Origin: a virus
Lineage: Duplodnaviria; Heunggongvirae; Uroviricota; Caudoviricetes
IMG/VR virus record: IMGVR_UViG_2563366802_000007
Direction: 5' to 3' (one strand)
Length of the DNA: 11,359 nucleotides
Below the pieces are notes generated by a model. It ran no database searches, was not told the origin of the DNA, and was given only the letters and a program-made list of their open reading frames with translations. The position numbers and the translations under genes are program-made. Positions 3,318-11,359 of this stretch are shown one piece after another (position 1 is the first letter of the stretch; the number at the start of each line of letters is the position of its first letter).

Positions 3318-6300
3318 ATGGGAAAAGGTGGCGGTAAGGCACACACGCCTCGTGAGGCGAAGGATAATCTCAAATCCACGCAGATGATGAGCGTGATTGA
3401 TGCGATTGGTGAGGGACCGATAGAAGGTCCGGTGAAGGGACTGCAGAGTATCCTGGTGAACAAAACCCCGCTGACGGACACGGACGGTAATCCCGTGATA
3501 CACGGTGTGACGGCGGTCTGGCGCGCCGGGGAGCAGGAGCAGACACCACCGGAAGGCTTTGAGTCCTCCGGTGCTGAAACCGGACTGGGCGTGGAAGTGA
3601 CGAAGGCAAAACCGGTGACGCGCACCATTACGTCCGCGAACATTGACCGCCTGCGGGTTACCTTCGGGGTGCAGTCACTGGTGCAGACCACGTCAAAGGG
3701 CGACCGTAATCCTTCCTCTGTCCGGATTCTGATTCAGTTACAGCGTAATGGCCGCTGGGTGACGGAAAAGGATGTCACCATTAACGGCAAGACCACCTCG
3801 CAGTTCCTGGCCTCGGTGATTCTGGATAATCTGCCTCCCCGGCCCTTTAACATCCGGATGGTCAGGGAGACGGCGGACAGCACCACGGACCAGCTGCAGA
3901 ATAAGACGCTGTGGTCGTCATACACCGAAATCATCGATGTGAAACAGTGCTACCCGAACACGGCCATTGTGGGGCTGCAGGTGGATGCGGAGCAGTTCGG
4001 CGGCCAGCAGATGACGGTGAACTACCATATCCGCGGTCGCATCATCCAGGTGCCGTCAAACTATGACCCGGAAAAACGCACGTACAGTGGTATCTGGGAC
4101 GGCAGTCTGAAACCGGCATACAGCAACAACCCGGCCTGGTGCCTGTGGGACATGCTGACTCACCCGCGCTACGGCATGGGAAAACGTCTGGGGGCGGCGG
4201 ATGTGGACAAGTGGGCGCTGTATGCCATCGGGCAGTACTGCGACCAGACGGTCCCGGATGGTTTCGGGGGGACCGAGCCGCGGATGACCTTTAATGCGTA
4301 CCTGGCACAACAGCGTAAGGCGTGGGACGTTCTCAGTGATTTCTGCTCTGCGATGCGCTGTATGCCGGTATGGAACGGCCAGACGCTGACGTTCGTTCAG
4401 GACCGTCCGTCGGATGTGGTGTGGCCGTACACCAACAGCGATGTGGTGGTGGATGATAACGGCGTGGGTTTCCGCTACAGCTTCAGTGCCCTGAAGGACC
4501 GGCACACGGCAGTGGAGGTGAATTACACCGACCCGCAGAACGGCTGGCAGACCTCCACGGAACTGGTGGAAGACCCGGAAGCCATACTGCGCTACGGACG
4601 CAACCTGCTGAAGATGGACGCGTTCGGCTGTACCAGCCGCGGTCAGGCCCACCGTGCCGGGCTGTGGGTGATAAAGACCGAACTGCTGGAAACGCAGACG
4701 GTGGATTTCACGCTCGGGTCACAGGGGCTGCGTCACACACCCGGTGACATCATTGAAATCTGTGATAACGACTATGCCGGGACCATGACCGGCGGACGTG
4801 TCCTGTCCATCGATGCCGCCAGCCGTACCCTGACGCTGGACCGGGAGGTGACACTGCCGGAGACCGGCACGGCCACTGTTAATCTGATTAACGGCAGCGG
4901 TAAGCCGGCGAGCGTGGCCATCACCGCACACCCCGCGCCTGACCGGATACAGGTCAGCACCCTGCCGGATGGTGTGGAGACATACGGTGTGTGGGGACTC
5001 TCCCTGCCGTCACTGCGTCGTCGCCTGTTCCGCTGTGTCTCCATCCGGGAAAACACGGACGGCACCTTTGCCATCACGGCGGTGCAGCACGTACCTGAAA
5101 AAGAAGCCATCGTGGATAACGGGGCCCGCTTTGAGCCGCAGTCAGGCACCCTGAACAGCGTTATCCCACCGGCAGTGCAGCACCTGACGGTGGAGGTGAG
5201 CGCAGCTGACGGCCAGTATCTGGCGCAGGCTAAATGGGACACGCCGCGGGTGGTGAAGGGCGTGCGCTTCAGTCTGCGCCTGACCAGTGGTAAGGGAACG
5301 GATGCCAGACTGGTGACCACCGCCATCACCGCAGACACGGAGCACCGTTTCAGCGGCCTGCCACTGGGGGAATACACCCTGACGGTGCGGGCCATTAACA
5401 GCTACGGCCAGCAGGGCGAACCTGCGACCACCACCTTCCGGATTGCCGCACCGGCAGCACCGTCGCGGATTGAGCTGACGCCGGGGTATTTTCAGATAAC
5501 GGCGGTCCCGCGTCTTGCGGTGTATGACCCGACGGTACAGTTTGAATTCTGGTTCTCAGAAAAACGCATCACGAACACAGCACAGGTGGAAAAATCTGCC
5601 CGTTATCTGGGGACCGGCAGTCAGTGGACTGTCCAGGGGAGCCGGATTAAGCCGGGGACGGATTTCTGGTTTTACGTGCGAAGCGTCAACCTGGTGGGAA
5701 AATCTGCTTTTGTGGAAGCCAGCGGGCAGCCCAGCAATGATGGTGAAGGGTATCTGGAAATTTTCCGGGGGCTGATAGATGAGACGCTTCTGGGCCAGGC
5801 ACTGAAAGAGCGCATTGATGCTTCAGCGCTGCGTACGGAGGTCACGCAACTGGAAGAAGACATCCGTCAGCGGATGGACACGGATATCGCAGAAGTGACC
5901 CGGAAAATCGGGAAGGCGGAAAACAGCCTCACGCAGCTGGTTGCGAAAAAGAATGAGGACCAGACACTGGCCATCGCGCAGGTGAGCCAGAAAGTGGACC
6001 GGGTGAGCAGTGAAATCTCACAGACTGTCAGCCAGGGGCAGTCAGAAAACGCCCGACAGATAGCACAGGTCCGCCAGTACGTGGATAAAAAAGGGAGTGA
6101 AATTACCTCGACCACGGATAAAAAGCTGGGTGACCAGGCCGTGACCATACAGCAAATCCAGCGGGTTCAGTCAGACACGCGCAATGAGCTGAATGCCATG
6201 TATATGCTGAAGGTGCAGAAAACAAAAAACGGTATTCCCTATGTGGCCGGGATTGGTGCGGGGATTGAGGATGTTGATGGTCAGACCCTGAGTAACATTC

Positions 6301-7010
6301 TGCTGCAGGCCGATCGCATTGCGATGATTACCCCGGAGAACGGCAACACCACGCCGCTGTTTGTGGCGCAGGGGAATCAGCTGTTCATGAACGACGTGTT
6401 CCTGAAGCGACTGTTTGCGGTGAGCATCACGTCATCCGGCAATCCTCCGACGTTTTCCCTGACGCCGGATGGCAGGCTGACAGCCCGCAATGCGGATATC
6501 AGTGGAGCCATCACGGCGAATACCGGCACGCTCAATAATGTCACCATTAACGAGAACTGTGTCATCAGAGGGAAACTGTCTGCAAACCAGATTGAAGGCG
6601 ATCTCGTTAAAACAGTGGGTAAGGCTTTCCCTCGTGACTCCCGTGCACCGAAGCGTTGGCCATCAGGAACCATTACCGTCAGGGTTTATGACGATCAGCC
6701 GTTTAACCGGCAGATTGTTATTCCGGCGGTGGCTTTCAGCGGTGCCAGACATGAGCGGGAGAACAGCGATACTTATTCGTCATGCCGCCTGATAGTACGG
6801 AAAAACGGTGCTGAAATTTATAACCGTACCGCGCTGGATAATACGCTGATTTACAGTGGTGTTATTGATATGCCTGCTGGTCGCGGCCACATGACGCTGG
6901 AGTTTTCTGTATCAGCATGGTGGGTAAATGGCTGGTATCCCACAGCAAGTATCAGCGATTTGCTGGTTGTTGTGATGAAGAAAGCCACTGCAGGCATCAC
7001 GATTAGCTGA
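3318..7010 (+). CDS. J: Tail tip / host specificity protein J (central tail fibre)
   Basis: 1230-aa ORF with GGGGAAGG SD. Conserved J-like N-terminal region, including the [16 protein letters not shown] segment. Two fibronectin-III-like segments (~nt 5160-5740), a heptad-rich charged segment (~5750-6230) and a C-terminal domain ending ...[14 protein letters not shown]. Same position as lambda J, but longer than the 1132 aa I recall for lambda. Confidence 0.9.
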
Positions 7011-7029
7011 ATTTTATAACCCCAATACG

Positions 7030-7056
7030 GGCGCCAGAAATGGCGCCTTTTTTATT
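7030..7056 (+). terminator. Rho-independent terminator downstream of J (stem GGCGCCA / TGGCGCC, loop GAAA, then TTTTTTATT)
   Basis: Perfect 7-bp GC stem 7030-7036 / 7041-7047 followed directly by T-run 7048-7056, 20 nt after the J stop. Confidence 0.7.
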
Positions 7057-7077
7057 GCAGAAAAGCGAGAGGTAATT

Positions 7078-7677
7078 ATGCGTAAAGTTTGTGCAGCCAT
7101 TTTGTCCGCAGCCATCTGTCTGTCCGTATCCGGTGCGCCTGCATGGGCGTCTGAACATCAGCCCACACTGAGCGCGGGGTATCTTCATGCCCGTACGAAC
7201 GCTCCCGGCAGCGATAATCTGAACGGGATTAACGTGAAATACCGTTATGAGTTTACGGACGCGCTGGGGCTGATTACGTCCTTCAGTTATGCCAATGCTG
7301 AGGATGAGCAAAAAACGCACTACAGCGATACCCGCTGGCATGAAGATTCCGTGCGTAACCGCTGGTTCAGCGTGATGGCGGGGCCGTCTGTACGCGTGAA
7401 TGAATGGTTCAGCGCGTATGCGATGGTGGGTGTGGCTTACAGCCGTGTGTCGACTTTCTCCGGGGATTATCTCCGCGTAACTGACAACAAGGGGAAAACG
7501 CACGATGTGCTGACCGGAAGTGATGACGGTCGCCACAGCAACACGTCTCTGGCGTGGGGGGCTGGCGTGCAGTTTAACCCGACCGAATCCGTAACCATTG
7601 ACCTTGCTTATGAAGGTTCCGGTAGTGGCGACTGGCGAACGGATGCATTTATTGTTGGTATCGGATACCGTTTCTGA
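7078..7677 (+). CDS. lom: Outer membrane protein Lom (Ail/Lom/PagC family beta-barrel; lysogenic-conversion moron)
   Basis: 199-aa ORF with GAGAGG SD. N-terminal signal peptide with AWA-S cleavage site. Alternating amphipathic beta-strand pattern and C-terminal ...GIGYRF ending in an aromatic residue, typical of beta-barrel OMPs. Sits at the lambda lom position between J and stf. Confidence 0.9.
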   Translation: MRKVCAAILSAAICLSVSGAPAWASEHQPTLSAGYLHARTNAPGSDNLNGINVKYRYEFTDALGLITSFSYANAEDEQKTHYSDTRWHEDSVRNRWFSVMAGPSVRVNEWFSAYAMVGVAYSRVSTFSGDYLRVTDNKGKTHDVLTGSDDGRHSNTSLAWGAGVQFNPTESVTIDLAYEGSGSGDWRTDAFIVGIGYRF

Positions 7678-7782: not shown

Positions 7783-7817
7783 AGCCCGTGGCGTCACTGC
7801 TGCGGGCTTTTTTTATT
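7783..7817 (+). terminator. Probable rho-independent terminator downstream of lom
   Basis: AGCCCG...CGGGCT imperfect hairpin (7783-7808) followed by TTTTTTTATT (7808-7817), just upstream of the stf SD. Confidence 0.5.
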
Positions 7818-7828
7818 GGTGGAAAAGT

Positions 7829-10549
7829 ATGACAGTAAAAATTTCTGGCGTGCTTAAAGATGGCACAGGAAAACCAGTACAGAACTGCACCATTGTGCTG
7901 AAGGCCAGACGAACCAGCAGCACGGTGGTGGTGAACACGGTGGCCTCTGAAAATCCGGATGAAGCCGGACGTTACAGCATGGATGTTGAGCATGGCCAGT
8001 ACAGCGTCACCCTGCTGGTTGAAGGTTTTCCGCCTTCACATGCCGGGACCATTACCGTCTATGAAGGTTCCAGACCAGGTACGCTGAATGATTTTCTCGG
8101 TGCCATGACGGAGGATGATGTCCGACCGGAGGCACTGCGCCGCTTTGAGCAGATGGTGGAAGAGGTGTCACGTAACGCCTCCGCGGTTGCACAGAATACG
8201 GCAGCCGCGAAAAAATCAGCCAGCGATGCCAGTGCATCAGCCAGCGAGGCGGCAACTCATGCAACCGATGCTGCAGCCTCAGCACGTGCCGCCAGCACGT
8301 CAGCCGGACAGGCCGCGTCGTCGGCTCAGTCAGCGTCTTCCAGCGCAGGAACGGCATCGACAAAGGCCCGTGAAGCAGCAAAAAGTGCTGCTGCTGCAGA
8401 GTCATCAAAAAGCGCGGCAGCTACCAGCGCCAGTGCCGCGAAAACGTCAGAAACGAATGCCGCAGCATCACAAAAATCGGCAGCCACTTCTGCATCCACA
8501 GCGACCATGAAGGCGTCAGAAGCTGCCACCTCGGCACGGGGTGCGGCGGCCTCAAAAGAGGCAGCGAAATCTTCAGAAACGAATGCATCATCAAGTGCCA
8601 GTAGTGCAGCTTCCTCGGCAACGGCGGCAGGAAATTCCGCGAAGGCGGCAAAAACGTCCGAGACGAACGCTAAGTCTTCTGAAACAGCAGCGGGACAGAG
8701 CGCCTCAGCTGCGGCAGGTTCAAAAACAGCGGCTGCATTATCTGCCAGTGCCGCGTCAACAAGTGCCGGGCAGGCCTCAGCCAGTGCCACCGCCGCCGGA
8801 AAATCGGCAGAAAGCGCCGCATCATCCGCTTCAACAGCCACAACGAAGGCTGGCAAAGCCACTGAGCAAGCCACTGCAGCAGCGAGGTCTGCTTCTGCAG
8901 CAAAAACCTCTGAAACAAATGCAAAGACTTCAGCAGACAATGCTGCTTCCTCTAAGGCGGCAGCCGCATCGTCAGCCAGTTCAGCGGCGTCATCGGCATC
9001 ATCTGCGTCTGCTTCAAAAGATGAGGCGACCAGACAAGCGTCAGCAGCGAAAGGTAGTGCCACGACAGCAACAACGAAAGCATCAGAGGCGGCAGGCAGT
9101 GCGACGGCTGCATCTCAGAGCAAAGTTGCTGCTGAATCCGCGGCAACGCGCGCCGAGACAGCAGCAAAACGGGCAGAGGATATTGCATCCGCCGTGGCGC
9201 TGGAGGATGCGAGCACGACGAAAAAGGGGATAGTACAGCTCAGCAGTGCAACAAACAGCACCAGTGAAAAGCTGGCGGCAACGCCAAAGGCAGTTAAAAC
9301 TGTTAAAGATAGTTCAGTTCAAAAAACTGGCGACACAATGGGAGGGCAGTTAAAAATCAGCACGATAAATGCTCTTCGAATATTCAACCAAGCCTTTGGC
9401 CTTATTTTTAGGCGTTCCGAAGATCATCTTCATCTTATTCCGACTAATGAAGGGGAGGGGGAAAATGGAGACATCGGTTCATTAAGACCATTCTCTATAA
9501 ACTTAAGATCAGGGTTGGTGTCCATCGGTAATGGACTAAAAGTTGGTGGTAGTGTTACTGGTAATTTGACCGGAAACGCAGATACTGCGACCAAGATCAA
9601 GACAGCACGTAAGATTGGGGGCGTGGCATTTGATGGATCGGCAGATATCAACTTGCCTGGAGTCAACGCTACCGGTAATCAAAACACTACAGGTAATGCT
9701 GCGACCGCCACGAAACTTCAGGCAGCCAGAACGATTAACGGTGTGTCATTTGATGGTAGTGCAAATATCACATTGACCCCTTCAAATATTGGGGCATTGG
9801 CATTAACTGGAGGGACTCTTTCAGGTGGTTTAACTGCTGCTGGTGAGGTTATTTCAAGGTCAGCAAATGGTCTGCGTATTGCCTATGGCAACTATGGATT
9901 CTTTATCCGAAATGATGGATCAAACACATATTTTATGTTGACAGATTCGGGTAACAGTCTTGGTACGCACAATAGCTTAAGGCCGTTTATAATTAGTAAC
10001 CATACTGGCAATGTTACAATTGCAACTAAATTAAACGCGAGTGGTGGTATCACTGGATCTTTATCGGGTAATGCAAGCACAGCAACCAAATTGCAAACTG
10101 CAAGGACAATTAACGGCGTAAAATTTGACGGCTCGGCAAATATTGAAGCGTTTCCGCCAGGTGTTCCGCTGCCGTGGCCATCAGATACACCACCTGCAGG
10201 TTATGCGATCATGCAGGGGCAGACGTTTGATAAGGCAGCATATCCGAAACTGGCTATTGCCTATCCTTCAGGTGTTATTCCAGATATGCGCGGCTGGACA
10301 ATCAAGGGCAAACCCGCCAGTGGCCGGGCCGTATTGTCTCAGGAACAGGACGGCATAAAATCGCACACCCACAGCGCCAGCGCATCCAGTACGGATTTGG
10401 GGACGAAAACCACATCGTCGTTTGATTACGGCACTAAATCCACGAATAACACCGGGGCGCATACGCACAGTCTGAGTGGCTCTACGGGGTCTGCCGGTGT
10501 TCATACTCATGGTAATGGTATTCGTTGGCCCGGAGACTTCTTCCTATAG
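7829..10549 (+). CDS. stf: Side tail fibre protein Stf, main reading frame (ends prematurely relative to the conserved C-terminal tip; see 10476-10775)
   Basis: 906-aa ORF with GGTGGA SD. N-terminus ([20 protein letters not shown]...) resembles lambda Stf as recalled. Long Ala/Ser-rich low-complexity region, then three tail-fibre repeats, then a C-terminal part resembling the lambda Stf tip (PWPSD...[34 protein letters not shown]...). Frame terminates at TAG 10547-10549 inside the His-rich tip region. Confidence 0.85.
8180..9210 (+). repeat. Ala/Ser/Thr-rich low-complexity coding repeat within stf (recurring AAKTSETNA-type units)
   Basis: About 340 codons dominated by GCN/TCN/ACN codons. The motif A-K-(T/S)-SETNA recurs at least four times (nt ~8440, ~8566, ~8645, ~8897). 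It generates spurious long ORFs in other frames and on the opposite strand. Confidence 0.8.
9569..10150 (+). repeat. Three copies of a ~29-aa phage tail-fibre repeat within stf
   Basis: [29 protein letters not shown] (9569-9655), [29 protein letters not shown] (9689-9775) and [29 protein letters not shown] (10064-10150). The pattern resembles the Pfam 'phage tail fibre repeat' family found in T-even/P2/lambda-type fibres (assignment from memory). Confidence 0.7.
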
Positions 10550-10775
10550 ATCGTATTATCAACGTATTCAGACACAGTCAGCAGGTGCTCATACCCACTC
10601 GCTGTCTGGTACTGCAGCAAGTTCTGGCGCACATGCACATACTGTAGGTATTGGTGCGCATACGCACTCCGTTGCGATTGGTTCACATGGACACACCATC
10701 ACCGTTAACGCTGCGGGTAACGCGGAAAACACCGTCAAAAACATCGCATTTAACTATATTGTGAGGCTTGCATAA
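10476..10775 (+). CDS. stf: Stf C-terminal His-rich tip segment in the +1 frame (probable frameshifted continuation of stf, not an independent gene)
   Basis: Frame 0 is open from 10359 to TAA 10773-10775 and encodes ...[65 protein letters not shown], which matches the extreme C-terminus of lambda Stf as I recall it. No SD precedes the ATG at 10476. Stop overlaps the tfa start (TAATG). Confidence 0.6.
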
Positions 10776-11359
10776 TGGCATTCAGAATGAGTGAACAAGC
10801 ACGGACCATAAAAATTTATAATCTGCTGGCCGGAACTAATGAATTTATTGGTGAAGGTGACGCATATATTCCGCCTCATACAGGTCTGCCAGCAAACAGT
10901 ACCGATATTGCACCACCAGATATTCCTGCTGGCTTTGTGGCTGTTTTCAACAGTGATGAGGCATCGTGGCATCTCGTTGAAGACCATCGGGGGAAAACGG
11001 TTTATGACGTAGCGTCAGGGGACGAGTTATTTATTTCTGAACTCGGTCCGTTACCGGAAAATGTTACCTGGTTATCGCCGGAAGGGGAGTTTCAGAAGTG
11101 GAACGGCACAGCCTGGGTGAAGGATACGGAAGCAGAAAAACTGTTCCGGATCCGGGAGGCGGAAGAAACAAAAAACAACCTGATGCAGGTAGCCAGTGAG
11201 CATATTGCGCCGCTTCAGGATGCTGCAGATCTGGAAATTGCAACGGAGGAAGAAACCTCATTGCTGGAAGCCTGGAAAAAGTATCGGGTGTTGCTGAACC
11301 GTGTTGATACATCAACTGCACCTGATATTGAGTGGCCTACGAACCCTGTCAGGGAGTAA
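10775..11359 (+). CDS. tfa: Tail fibre assembly protein Tfa (chaperone for Stf)
   Basis: 194-aa ORF ending exactly at the window end (TAA 11357-11359). Sequence [34 protein letters not shown]... closely resembles lambda Tfa as recalled. Start is coupled to the stf C-terminal frame. Confidence 0.9.

Follow-up and report, generated by a model that had tools for sequence, protein, structure and literature searches.

A probable cassette exchange within a lambda-type side tail fibre gene of an Escherichia coli prophage

The middle of stf, the side tail fibre gene carried on an 11,359-nt stretch of viral DNA (IMG/VR record IMGVR_UViG_2563366802_000007; hereafter the window), is very probably a swapped cassette, a reading to which we assign a probability of approximately 0.88. 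The gene is a lambda-type side tail fibre gene of an E. coli lambda-like prophage. The open reading frames (ORFs) of the window run in the order J (3318-7010), lom (7078-7677), stf and tfa, an order also given by the annotation for the identical locus of E. coli 7/2, where tfa is described as a tail fiber assembly protein. The horizontal module exchange proposed in the initial annotation is supported by sharp joints, by alternative cassettes between those joints, and by discordance between the identities of flanks and cassette. In the layout of the gene (Table 1), a lambda-like attachment domain and an Ala/Ser-rich shaft lead through one conserved joint into a cassette of 849 nt, and through a second conserved joint into a lambda-like Collar and HxH-repeat tip, followed by tfa.

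Table 1. Parts of stf and the adjoining tfa gene, in window coordinates
Feature	Coordinates	Strand	Basis
stf ORF (906 aa, frameshift-truncated; intact allele 1008 aa)	7829..10549	+	ORF list and translation
phage_tail_N, N-terminal tail-attachment domain (aa 1-134)	7829..8230	+	PF08400; 84% nt identity to lambda stf
Ala/Ser/Thr-rich shaft (A 37%, S 23%, T 12%)	8231..9226	+	Amino acid composition; blastn segments against lambda
Left joint, conserved motif; counterpart is the Phage_fiber_2 (PF03406) motif of lambda Stf	9227..9298	+	Five-gene joint alignment
Central AT-rich cassette (aa 491-773), without lambda counterpart	9299..10147	+	GC 42.6%, GC3 33.5%; no lambda match
Unit A, putative diverged beta-prism domain, ends SLRPFSINL	9329..9571	+	Homology to unit B
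Fibre repeat 1, 26 residues	9572..9649	+	Pattern match
Fibre repeat 2, 26 residues; internal recombination joint in other prophages	9692..9769	+	Pattern match
Unit B, predicted gp34 / Mu S-type beta-prism domain, ends SLRPFIISN	9827..10066	+	Pfam Gp34_trimer, phmmer
Fibre repeat 3, 26 residues	10067..10144	+	Pattern match
Right joint, start of Collar region	10148..10186	+	Point where similarity to lambdoid genes resumes
Phage tail Collar domain (aa 778-825)	10160..10303	+	PF07484, 40 bits
80-bp deletion site relative to intact allele	10528..10530	+	Prefix/suffix comparison with E. coli 7/2
stf remainder, out of frame: HxH-repeat tip and lambda-like C-terminus	10531..10775	+	Translation of intact allele
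tfa, tail fibre assembly chaperone, 194 aa	10775..11359	+	ORF list; 93.8% nt identity to lambda tfa

Both ends of the gene resemble those of lambda (Ur-lambda), which shares with the window the J-lom-stf-tfa gene order, the Ala/Ser-rich type of shaft, and the LAATPKAVK and PWPSD motifs at the joints. The attachment domain is a strong match to PF08400 (234 bits, E = 5e-70, cut-off 26.6), and the tip matches PF03335 (21-25 bits) in addition to the Collar family. By blastn and tblastn, window positions 7804-8736 and 9042-9297 are 84% and 77% identical to the 5' part of lambda stf, and positions 10148-10504 and 10596-11359 are 76-94% identical to its 3' part and tfa (94% nt identity for tfa itself). 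The Collar and HxH-repeat tip has 65% amino acid identity to that of lambda over aa 764-1008 of the intact allele (tblastn, E = 1e-97). The view that the central module is flanked by lambda-like parts holds for the matching 5' and 3' segments, but not for positions 8737-9041 of the Ala/Ser-rich shaft, which have no lambda counterpart, nor for the very end of the reading frame, which stops short of the lambda-like C-terminus. The Ala/Ser-rich shaft is approximately 100 aa longer than in lambda. The centre differs: aa 386-528 of lambda Stf (143 aa, …MDETNRKAPLDSPALTGTPTAPTA…ALNTLNELAAALG…GAGENS) are replaced here by 283 aa of gp34/Mu S-type domains, and neither blastn nor tblastn finds a lambda match within positions 9298-10147.

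The joints are precise. The two landmarks by which the initial annotation had bounded the module are real and lie close to where it had placed them: LAATPKAVK occupies aa 482-490 (nt 9272-9298) and PWPSD aa 782-786 (nt 10172-10186). Alignments with the fibre genes of lambda, PhiR26_1, PhiR30_1, phage 204576 and Cyrano all break off at 9297/9298, just 3' of LAATPKAVK, and similarity resumes at 10148 for lambda and at 10172 for PhiR26_1, PhiR30_1 and phage 204576; no collinear alignment of the whole protein to a single family, free of such breakpoints, was found. Between these joints, the last four, which are lambdoid, carry unrelated cassettes of approximately 430, 935, 1258 and 1261 nt. The left joint comprises approximately 70 nt that are largely identical among exchange partners. 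PF03406 covers aa 358-396 of lambda orf-401 (70.5 bits) and is not listed for the window protein at E <= 0.01; P0002 and P0003, which have nearly the same left-joint motif, have a precomputed PF03406 match. For the P2-like phage P24A7b, the match (90.5% nt identity over 17% of the query) is confined to segments between query positions 1389 and 2603, consistent with similarity at both joints.

Comparison among close relatives also makes exchange visible. In E. coli 203740 and 22F46, the N-terminal part of stf is 83-92% identical to that of the window and the central block and tip are 99.2-100% identical. Phage 204576 has a different centre, but its tip and tfa are 96.9% identical. Two further prophages (L091 and L092) are 100% identical over 9298-9528 and approximately 94% identical over 9529-9756, with diverged flanks; their similarity ends inside repeat 2, at about 9757-9778. 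Since these two share just its first half, the block can itself be subdivided. The central module described in the initial annotation is supported as a swapped block, although it is not one indivisible module. The full-length cassette is found in 423 of 5426 complete E. coli genomes (99.8-100% identical among the matches listed), and the whole of stf-tfa is found in the same number. The cassette is thus almost invariably accompanied by these flanks, and its recent exchange by itself is rare.

We infer both the mechanism of recombination and the direction of transfer. The cassette most likely entered by homologous recombination within short conserved joint sequences, which are common to many otherwise unrelated tail fibre genes, with the GNAxTATK…FDGSA repeats doubling as putative internal joints. 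A site-specific invertase of the Cin/Gin/Pin/Min type, acting at crossover sites, could instead have exchanged the segment: L091 and L092 have a Resolvase/HTH_7 gene just downstream of tfa, and relatives of the cassette sit in invertible segments of P1, P7 and Mu. We consider this very unlikely. Unlike the invertible fibre segments P1 C, Mu G, p15B Min and e14 P, the locus has no invertase or resolvase gene, either in the window itself or in the next 10 kb downstream of it in the source contig. Furthermore, the joints lie in protein-coding motifs, the extended identity of the left joint suits homologous recombination, and the joints fall at several conserved repeats (9298, about 9760 and 10148), a pattern that a single crossover site would not give.

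Exchange could be dispensed with altogether if the centre were a fast-evolving part of a vertically inherited stf, with its low GC content an effect of amino acid usage (a G/T/N/S/I-rich segment beside an Ala/Ser-rich one). The base composition bears on this in two ways. GC content is 42.6% in the centre (about 9296/9299 to 10147), compared with 57.5% in 7829-9295 and 54.6% in 10148-10528 (centre versus rest of stf, chi-square p = 6e-12). Of all windows of 852 nt, a mere 0.05% reach a GC content as low as that of the centre, and the minimum starts at 9292. The central block is indeed lower in GC, as the initial annotation had noted, and is the lowest-GC stretch of its length in the window; the AT-rich run quoted in that annotation lies at 9349-9385. 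This contrast is owed in part to amino acid composition: GC1 and GC2 differ strongly between the parts (0.56 and 0.69 on the left, 0.44 and 0.50 in the centre), and the Ala/Ser-rich left part raises GC2 to 0.69. Domains of the same type in Mu, P1-like and other lambdoid fibres likewise have 41-51% GC; low GC content is therefore common to this domain type, and a single recent AT-rich donor is not indicated. GC3, however, is also lower in the centre (33.5% versus 47.4% on the left, p = 2e-4, and 51.2% on the right, p = 1e-3), so that the drop in GC content is not due solely to the Ala/Ser-rich left part; the uniform composition across stf that the initial annotation had named as counting against its reading is not seen. 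Descent without exchange is also at odds with boundaries that are sharp to within a codon and common to five comparators, and with cassettes that range from 430 to 1261 nt, that of lambda lacking similarity even by tblastn. The discordant flank and cassette identities in 203740 and 22F46 (L003 and L004), phage 204576 (L007), L091 and L092 already contradict it, and we regard it as highly improbable.

The product of the cassette is predicted to be a segment of trimeric fibre shaft, of the type found in T4 gp34, Mu S and P1 S. Its three 26-residue GNAxTATK…FDGSA repeats, found by pattern match, correspond to the three tail-fibre repeats of the initial annotation, and the two copies of a longer motif reported there correspond to units A and B, which align with 42% identity over 107 aa (E = 7e-22). 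A domain search, also proposed there, identifies Pfam Gp34_trimer (PF21446) in unit B at 94-99 bits, above the cut-off of 27; for unit A by itself, the score of 14.7 bits falls short of this cut-off, and the predicted strand pattern is similar to that of unit B. Unit B is nearly identical to Mu S over approximately 80 aa (residues 268-349; PDB 5YVQ; phmmer E = 9e-26) and also matches the T4 gp34 structures 5NXF and 4UXE (about 1e-17). An AlphaFold2 monomer model of the cassette is of low confidence (pLDDT 65, pTM 0.32), and its best Foldseek matches, 5YVQ and gp34 4UXG/5NXF, reach a TM score of only approximately 0.2 for this low-confidence monomer. From these likenesses, the layout would be two beta-prism knobs, each with a GNAxTATK…FDGSA repeat after it, and one additional repeat between the knobs. 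In T4 gp34, beta-prism domains interrupt a triple beta-helix (PMC5537660), and by analogy the repeats of the cassette probably form a triple beta-helix. No match to Rfam was found in the cassette, and a scan of 9100-10700 for promoters and terminators gave counts at or under the shuffled expectation, so an embedded regulatory element is not suggested.

No direct DNA repeats of at least 20 nt are detectable in the cassette, and the duplications of units and repeats are therefore old. That the centre arose mainly by in-place duplication of one domain-plus-repeat unit, without import, is the least credible explanation: units A and B are homologous and the 26-aa repeat is present in three copies, but any such duplication is ancient, lambda lacks any copy of the unit as a starting point, unit B is far closer to Mu S than to unit A, and L091 and L092 have unit A but lack unit B.

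Under the favoured reading of a swapped cassette, its role is probably structural, setting fibre length, spacing and stiffness between the shaft and the receptor-binding tip. More speculatively, the two knobs could provide an extra, independent site for binding or sensing (a surface glycan, or docking on the tail), with the repeats serving as recombination linkers by which single knobs are added or removed across tail types; we think this unlikely. The sub-cassette joints at repeats, and the 100% identity of unit A in otherwise diverged fibres, are compatible with knobs as binding sites.

We were unable to identify a donor of the cassette from searches of phage records and of one genome per species. 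Distant blastn over 50,697 phage records gave partial matches of 69-76% identity and no full-length match; the best DNA matches were to P1-like fibres (Cyrano, CMS-2020a, P1 and P7 Sv') at 71-76%. In the one-genome-per-species scan, nothing close was found outside Escherichia (the best long match, in Kluyvera, has 41% aa identity), and the GNAxTATK…FDGSA repeat is scattered across many phyla. A possible P2-type context was set aside: in one metagenome contig (L090), the cassette (98.7% nt identity) follows a P2 H-type N-terminus, and this contig may be a chimeric assembly. Because its coverage is 2.7x and its junction is absent from the 5426 complete E. coli genomes, we do not rely on it.

With the S fibres of Mu and of P1 and P7, the window protein has shaft domains alone in common: those phages are contractile-tailed, their fibres have other N-termini and tips, and the segments are invertible. 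The likeness to the C-terminal region of T4 gp34 (PDB 4UXE/4UXG/5NXF; PF21446) lies in an architecture of triple beta-helix and triangular beta-prism, and aa 141-262 of the cassette align to gp34 residues 997-1120. Identity is only about 20-30%, however, and gp34 is a 1289-aa proximal half-fibre without a receptor-binding tip, whereas here the domains form an insert in the side fibre of a siphovirus.

That tail fibre genes are mosaics, with segments common to lambda, P2, P1, Mu and T4, is textbook knowledge, and such mosaicism was already recognized in 1992. The present case is clear but ordinary, an instance of the already known shuffling of cassettes among phage tail fibre genes, and as a discovery it is minor, given also that 423 complete E. 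coli genomes contain the intact allele. The literature describes the horizontal movement of stf segments between unrelated phages as well documented (PMC3945230).

In practical terms, the locus is useful because it clearly marks where lambda-type side fibres have natural permissive joints, namely after LAATPKAVK, within the GNAxTATK…FDGSA repeats, and before PWPSD. In lambda Stf, LAATPKAVK occupies aa 377-385, the motif MDETNR ends at aa 393, and GAGENS occupies aa 523-528; the latter two are presumably the lambda Stf insertion sites named in a patent, and a literature search on these two peptide motifs returned nothing relevant. Brödel et al. (Nature 2024; PMC11338833) built chimeric fibres for DNA delivery in which residues 1-393 or 1-528 of lambda Stf were joined to foreign parts. 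The first of these fusion points is no more than 8 residues from the left natural joint and the second coincides with the right one, so that two of the joints match points already used for retargeting lambda particles. In those chimeras everything distal is replaced to change the receptor, whereas here an internal cassette lies between a lambda-like base and tip. The repeat-internal joint is a possible further design point for engineered fibres.

The copy of stf in the window is truncated, a feature overlooked in the initial annotation. Relative to the intact allele (WP_000216486.1, E. coli 7/2, 3027 nt), 80 bp are deleted at 10528/10529, and the resulting frameshift leads to a stop codon at 10547-10549; the product is 906 aa rather than 1008, and the frame does not run uninterrupted to the conserved C-terminus. 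An imperfect 8-bp direct repeat (GCCAGGAG / GCCCGGAG) is present at the two boundaries of the deleted segment. The deletion junction in one piece is absent from the complete E. coli genomes and has no match in viral contigs, and GCA_000408605.1 is the only record with the 906-aa product. The fibre of this copy is probably non-functional, much as in lambda PaPa, in which Stf is also truncated by a frameshift; the lesion there is a 1-bp frameshift near aa 395, as opposed to the deletion near the tip here. Downstream of the deletion, the sequence is 100% identical to that of E. coli 7/2, and the out-of-frame remainder of stf forms part of an ORF at 10476-10775.

The window carries the distal tail genes of a lambda-like prophage (see table). 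From 6652 to its end, it is identical to the potB-adjacent prophage of E. coli 7/2, save for one 80-bp deletion. The 117 mismatches to that prophage all lie at or before 6651 (compared from 868) and are clustered, for example at 3684-3800, 4785-4988 and 5445-5468; their confinement to this side points to a further putative mosaic boundary close to the end of J. The J protein has 1230 aa, compared to approximately 1132 aa in lambda, and two stretches of the gene (5766-6308 and 6561-7010, C-terminal end included) gave no match in blastn to lambda J, which contacts its receptor via its C-terminal end. The central fibre encoded here probably has a receptor specificity different from that of lambda.

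Features of the window and of its stf gene (nucleotide positions unless residues are stated)
Feature	Position	Description or source
Tail genes L, K, I	upstream of J	ORF list
J	3318-7010	ORF list
lom	7078-7677	ORF list
stf	7829-10549	ORF list
stf left	7829-9295	GC 57.5%, GC3 47.4%
stf centre	9296-10147	GC 42.6%, GC3 33.5%
stf right	10148-10528	GC 54.6%, GC3 51.2%
Cassette (stf centre)	residues 491-773	in order: unit A, repeat 1, linker, repeat 2, unit B, repeat 3
Unit A	residues ~501-581	
Unit B	residues ~667-746	
tfa	10775-11359	ORF list

The initial annotation described stf as a mosaic with an AT-rich centre between lambda-like ends, and its landmarks were all located: LAATPKAVK at 9272-9298, PWPSD at 10172-10186 and an AT-rich run at 9349-9385. 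The break in composition is genuine and pronounced. Across the whole window, the centre has the lowest GC of any 852-nt stretch, and it differs in GC from the rest of stf (p = 6e-12, chi-square). The Ala/Ser-rich left region, with a GC2 of 0.69, does inflate the GC contrast; however, GC3 also drops in the centre (p = 2e-4 versus left, 1e-3 versus right), so the break is more than a by-product of this neighbour. These comparisons exclude a uniform composition, and the AT-rich centre stands. Domains homologous to the cassette in Mu S, Cyrano, P1 and PhiR30_1 likewise have 41-51% GC: low GC follows the domain type and does not point to a single recent donor. No cassette donor was found by blastn against phage records or in a scan of one genome per species.

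The window matches lambda at 7804-8736, 9042-9297, 10148-10504 and 10596-11359, while 9298-10147 has no lambda match, even by tblastn. Similarity also ends at 9297/9298 for the lambdoid phages PhiR26_1, PhiR30_1 and 204576 and for the P1-S-like fibre of phage Cyrano, and returns at 10172 in the three lambdoids. When the joints are aligned, the sequences are largely conserved as far as the final codon of ...LAATPKAVK and again from ...P(V/A)G(A/V)P(I/L)PWPSD, and are unrelated between, with cassettes of approximately 430 nt in lambda, 935 in PhiR26_1, 1258 in PhiR30_1, 1261 in 204576 and approximately 850 in the window. This shared break with different cassettes excludes a collinear alignment and confirms that stf is mosaic. 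Outside the cassette, approximately 305 nt of the Ala/Ser-rich shaft (8737-9041) lack a lambda counterpart (the flanking blastn segments abut in lambda), making the shaft approximately 100 residues longer.

The three fibre repeats and the doubled longer motif reported initially were both recovered, by pattern match and by alignment of units A and B. The 26-aa repeats fit GNAxTATK(I/L)x(T/A)AR(K/T)I(G/N)GVxFDGSA(D/N)I, and the two units, repeats included, share 42% identity across 107 aa (E = 7e-22). Unit B scores 94-99 bits against Pfam Gp34_trimer, is nearly identical to residues 268-349 of Mu S (PDB 5YVQ; E = 9e-26), and aligns with residues 997-1120 of T4 gp34, a region in which triangular beta-prism domains interrupt a triple beta-helix (PMC5537660). 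A weak AlphaFold monomer model (pLDDT 65) has a similar strand pattern in both units, with 5YVQ and gp34 as best PDB matches. The function of the cassette is most likely structural: it would provide a further length of shaft bearing two knobs, placed between the coiled Ala/Ser segment and the Collar/tip.

Identities of flanks and cassette are discordant among relatives, which supports horizontal module exchange as first proposed. In E. coli 203740 and 22F46, the N-terminal domain and shaft of stf are 83-92% identical to the window, and the cassette and tip 99.2-100%; phage 204576 has 96.9% identity in the tip and tfa and a different cassette. Two other lambdoid prophages, L091 and L092, are 83-91% identical in the N-terminal part, 100% at 9298-9528 and approximately 94% at 9529-9756. 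Their similarity then collapses within repeat 2 (approximately 9757-9778) and the distal parts differ, so the cassette is itself divisible, with the conserved repeats acting as internal joints. The exact joints are placed by alignment at 9298 and 10148, with a further one inside repeat 2. These joints, the link of GC to domain type and the truncation of this copy refine the original interpretation. Parts of the gene do match P2-like phages: P24A7b has 90.5% nucleotide identity over 17% of the query (within query positions 1389-2603). In one metagenome contig, a P2 H-type N-terminus is joined to the cassette; this contig was discounted for its low coverage and lack of a counterpart in complete genomes.

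Tail fibre mosaicism is long established, and this stf is an ordinary case. Homologous recombination at conserved joints is the classical explanation of such mosaics, and cassette exchange within these short joints most likely proceeded in this way. This fits the relaxed homologous recombination at stf-tfa between lambda and defective prophages shown by De Paepe et al. (PMC3945230). The main alternative is exchange driven by an invertase, but neither the window nor the next 10 kb of the source contig downstream contains an invertase gene, and the joints are multiple and within coding motifs. The two natural joints at the cassette ends also correspond to the fusion points of the DNA-delivery chimeric fibres of Brödel et al., made from lambda Stf 1-393 (lambda-P2) and 1-528 (lambda-K5) (PMC11338833): residues 377-385 of the Ur-lambda protein are LAATPKAVK, residue 393 is the last of MDETNR, and residues 523-528 are GAGENS. 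The match marks them as permissive domain boundaries, a property already known in practice.

The stf copy in the window is truncated. Compared to the intact 1008-aa allele of E. coli 7/2 (WP_000216486.1 in RefSeq; carried by 423 of the 5426 complete E. coli genomes), 80 bp are missing at 10528/10529, bounded by an imperfect direct repeat (GCCAGGAG / GCCCGGAG). The frameshift leads to a stop at 10549 and a 906-aa product; the last 100-odd residues (the fibre tip), including HxH repeats and the conserved C-terminus, are lost, with effects to 10775, and tfa is intact. The exact 906-aa product is recorded only in assembly GCA_000408605.1, where it occupies the same place on the chromosome as in E. 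coli 7/2, and the deletion junction was found in one piece in none of the 5426 genomes, nor in the viral contig collection. Either the deletion arose as a strain-specific mutation or GCA_000408605.1 contains an assembly error at this site. If the deletion is real, the prophage probably produces no functional side fibres, much like lambda PaPa. In PhiR30_1 (L006 1501-4894), the annotation splits stf into three 'side tail fiber protein' CDSs, and the gene is presumably interrupted too, which suggests that side-fibre loss is common among lambdoid phages.

The minus strand of the Ala/Ser-rich part of stf carries a 245-aa antisense ORF (8326-9063), which also appears as a called gene in L091 and L092; in lambda, the antisense orf206b is annotated at the corresponding position. 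GCN/AGC-rich repeats most likely gave rise to this ORF as an artefact. A full-length match to Rfam IS009 (RF02111; 225 bits; 11118-11316, plus strand) lies wholly within the 3' half of tfa; this family was probably built on conserved tfa coding sequence rather than on an independent RNA gene. In L092, one of the related lambdoid prophages sharing cassette unit A, a SopE-type guanine-nucleotide-exchange effector gene (6871-7593, minus strand) directly follows tfa and is itself followed by a resolvase/invertase gene. Downstream of tfa, the source contig (L009 13586-14577) encodes an opposite-strand SAM-dependent methyltransferase and an 88-aa piece of a second tail fibre assembly protein, with potB next; this piece may be a leftover of an earlier fibre-end exchange.
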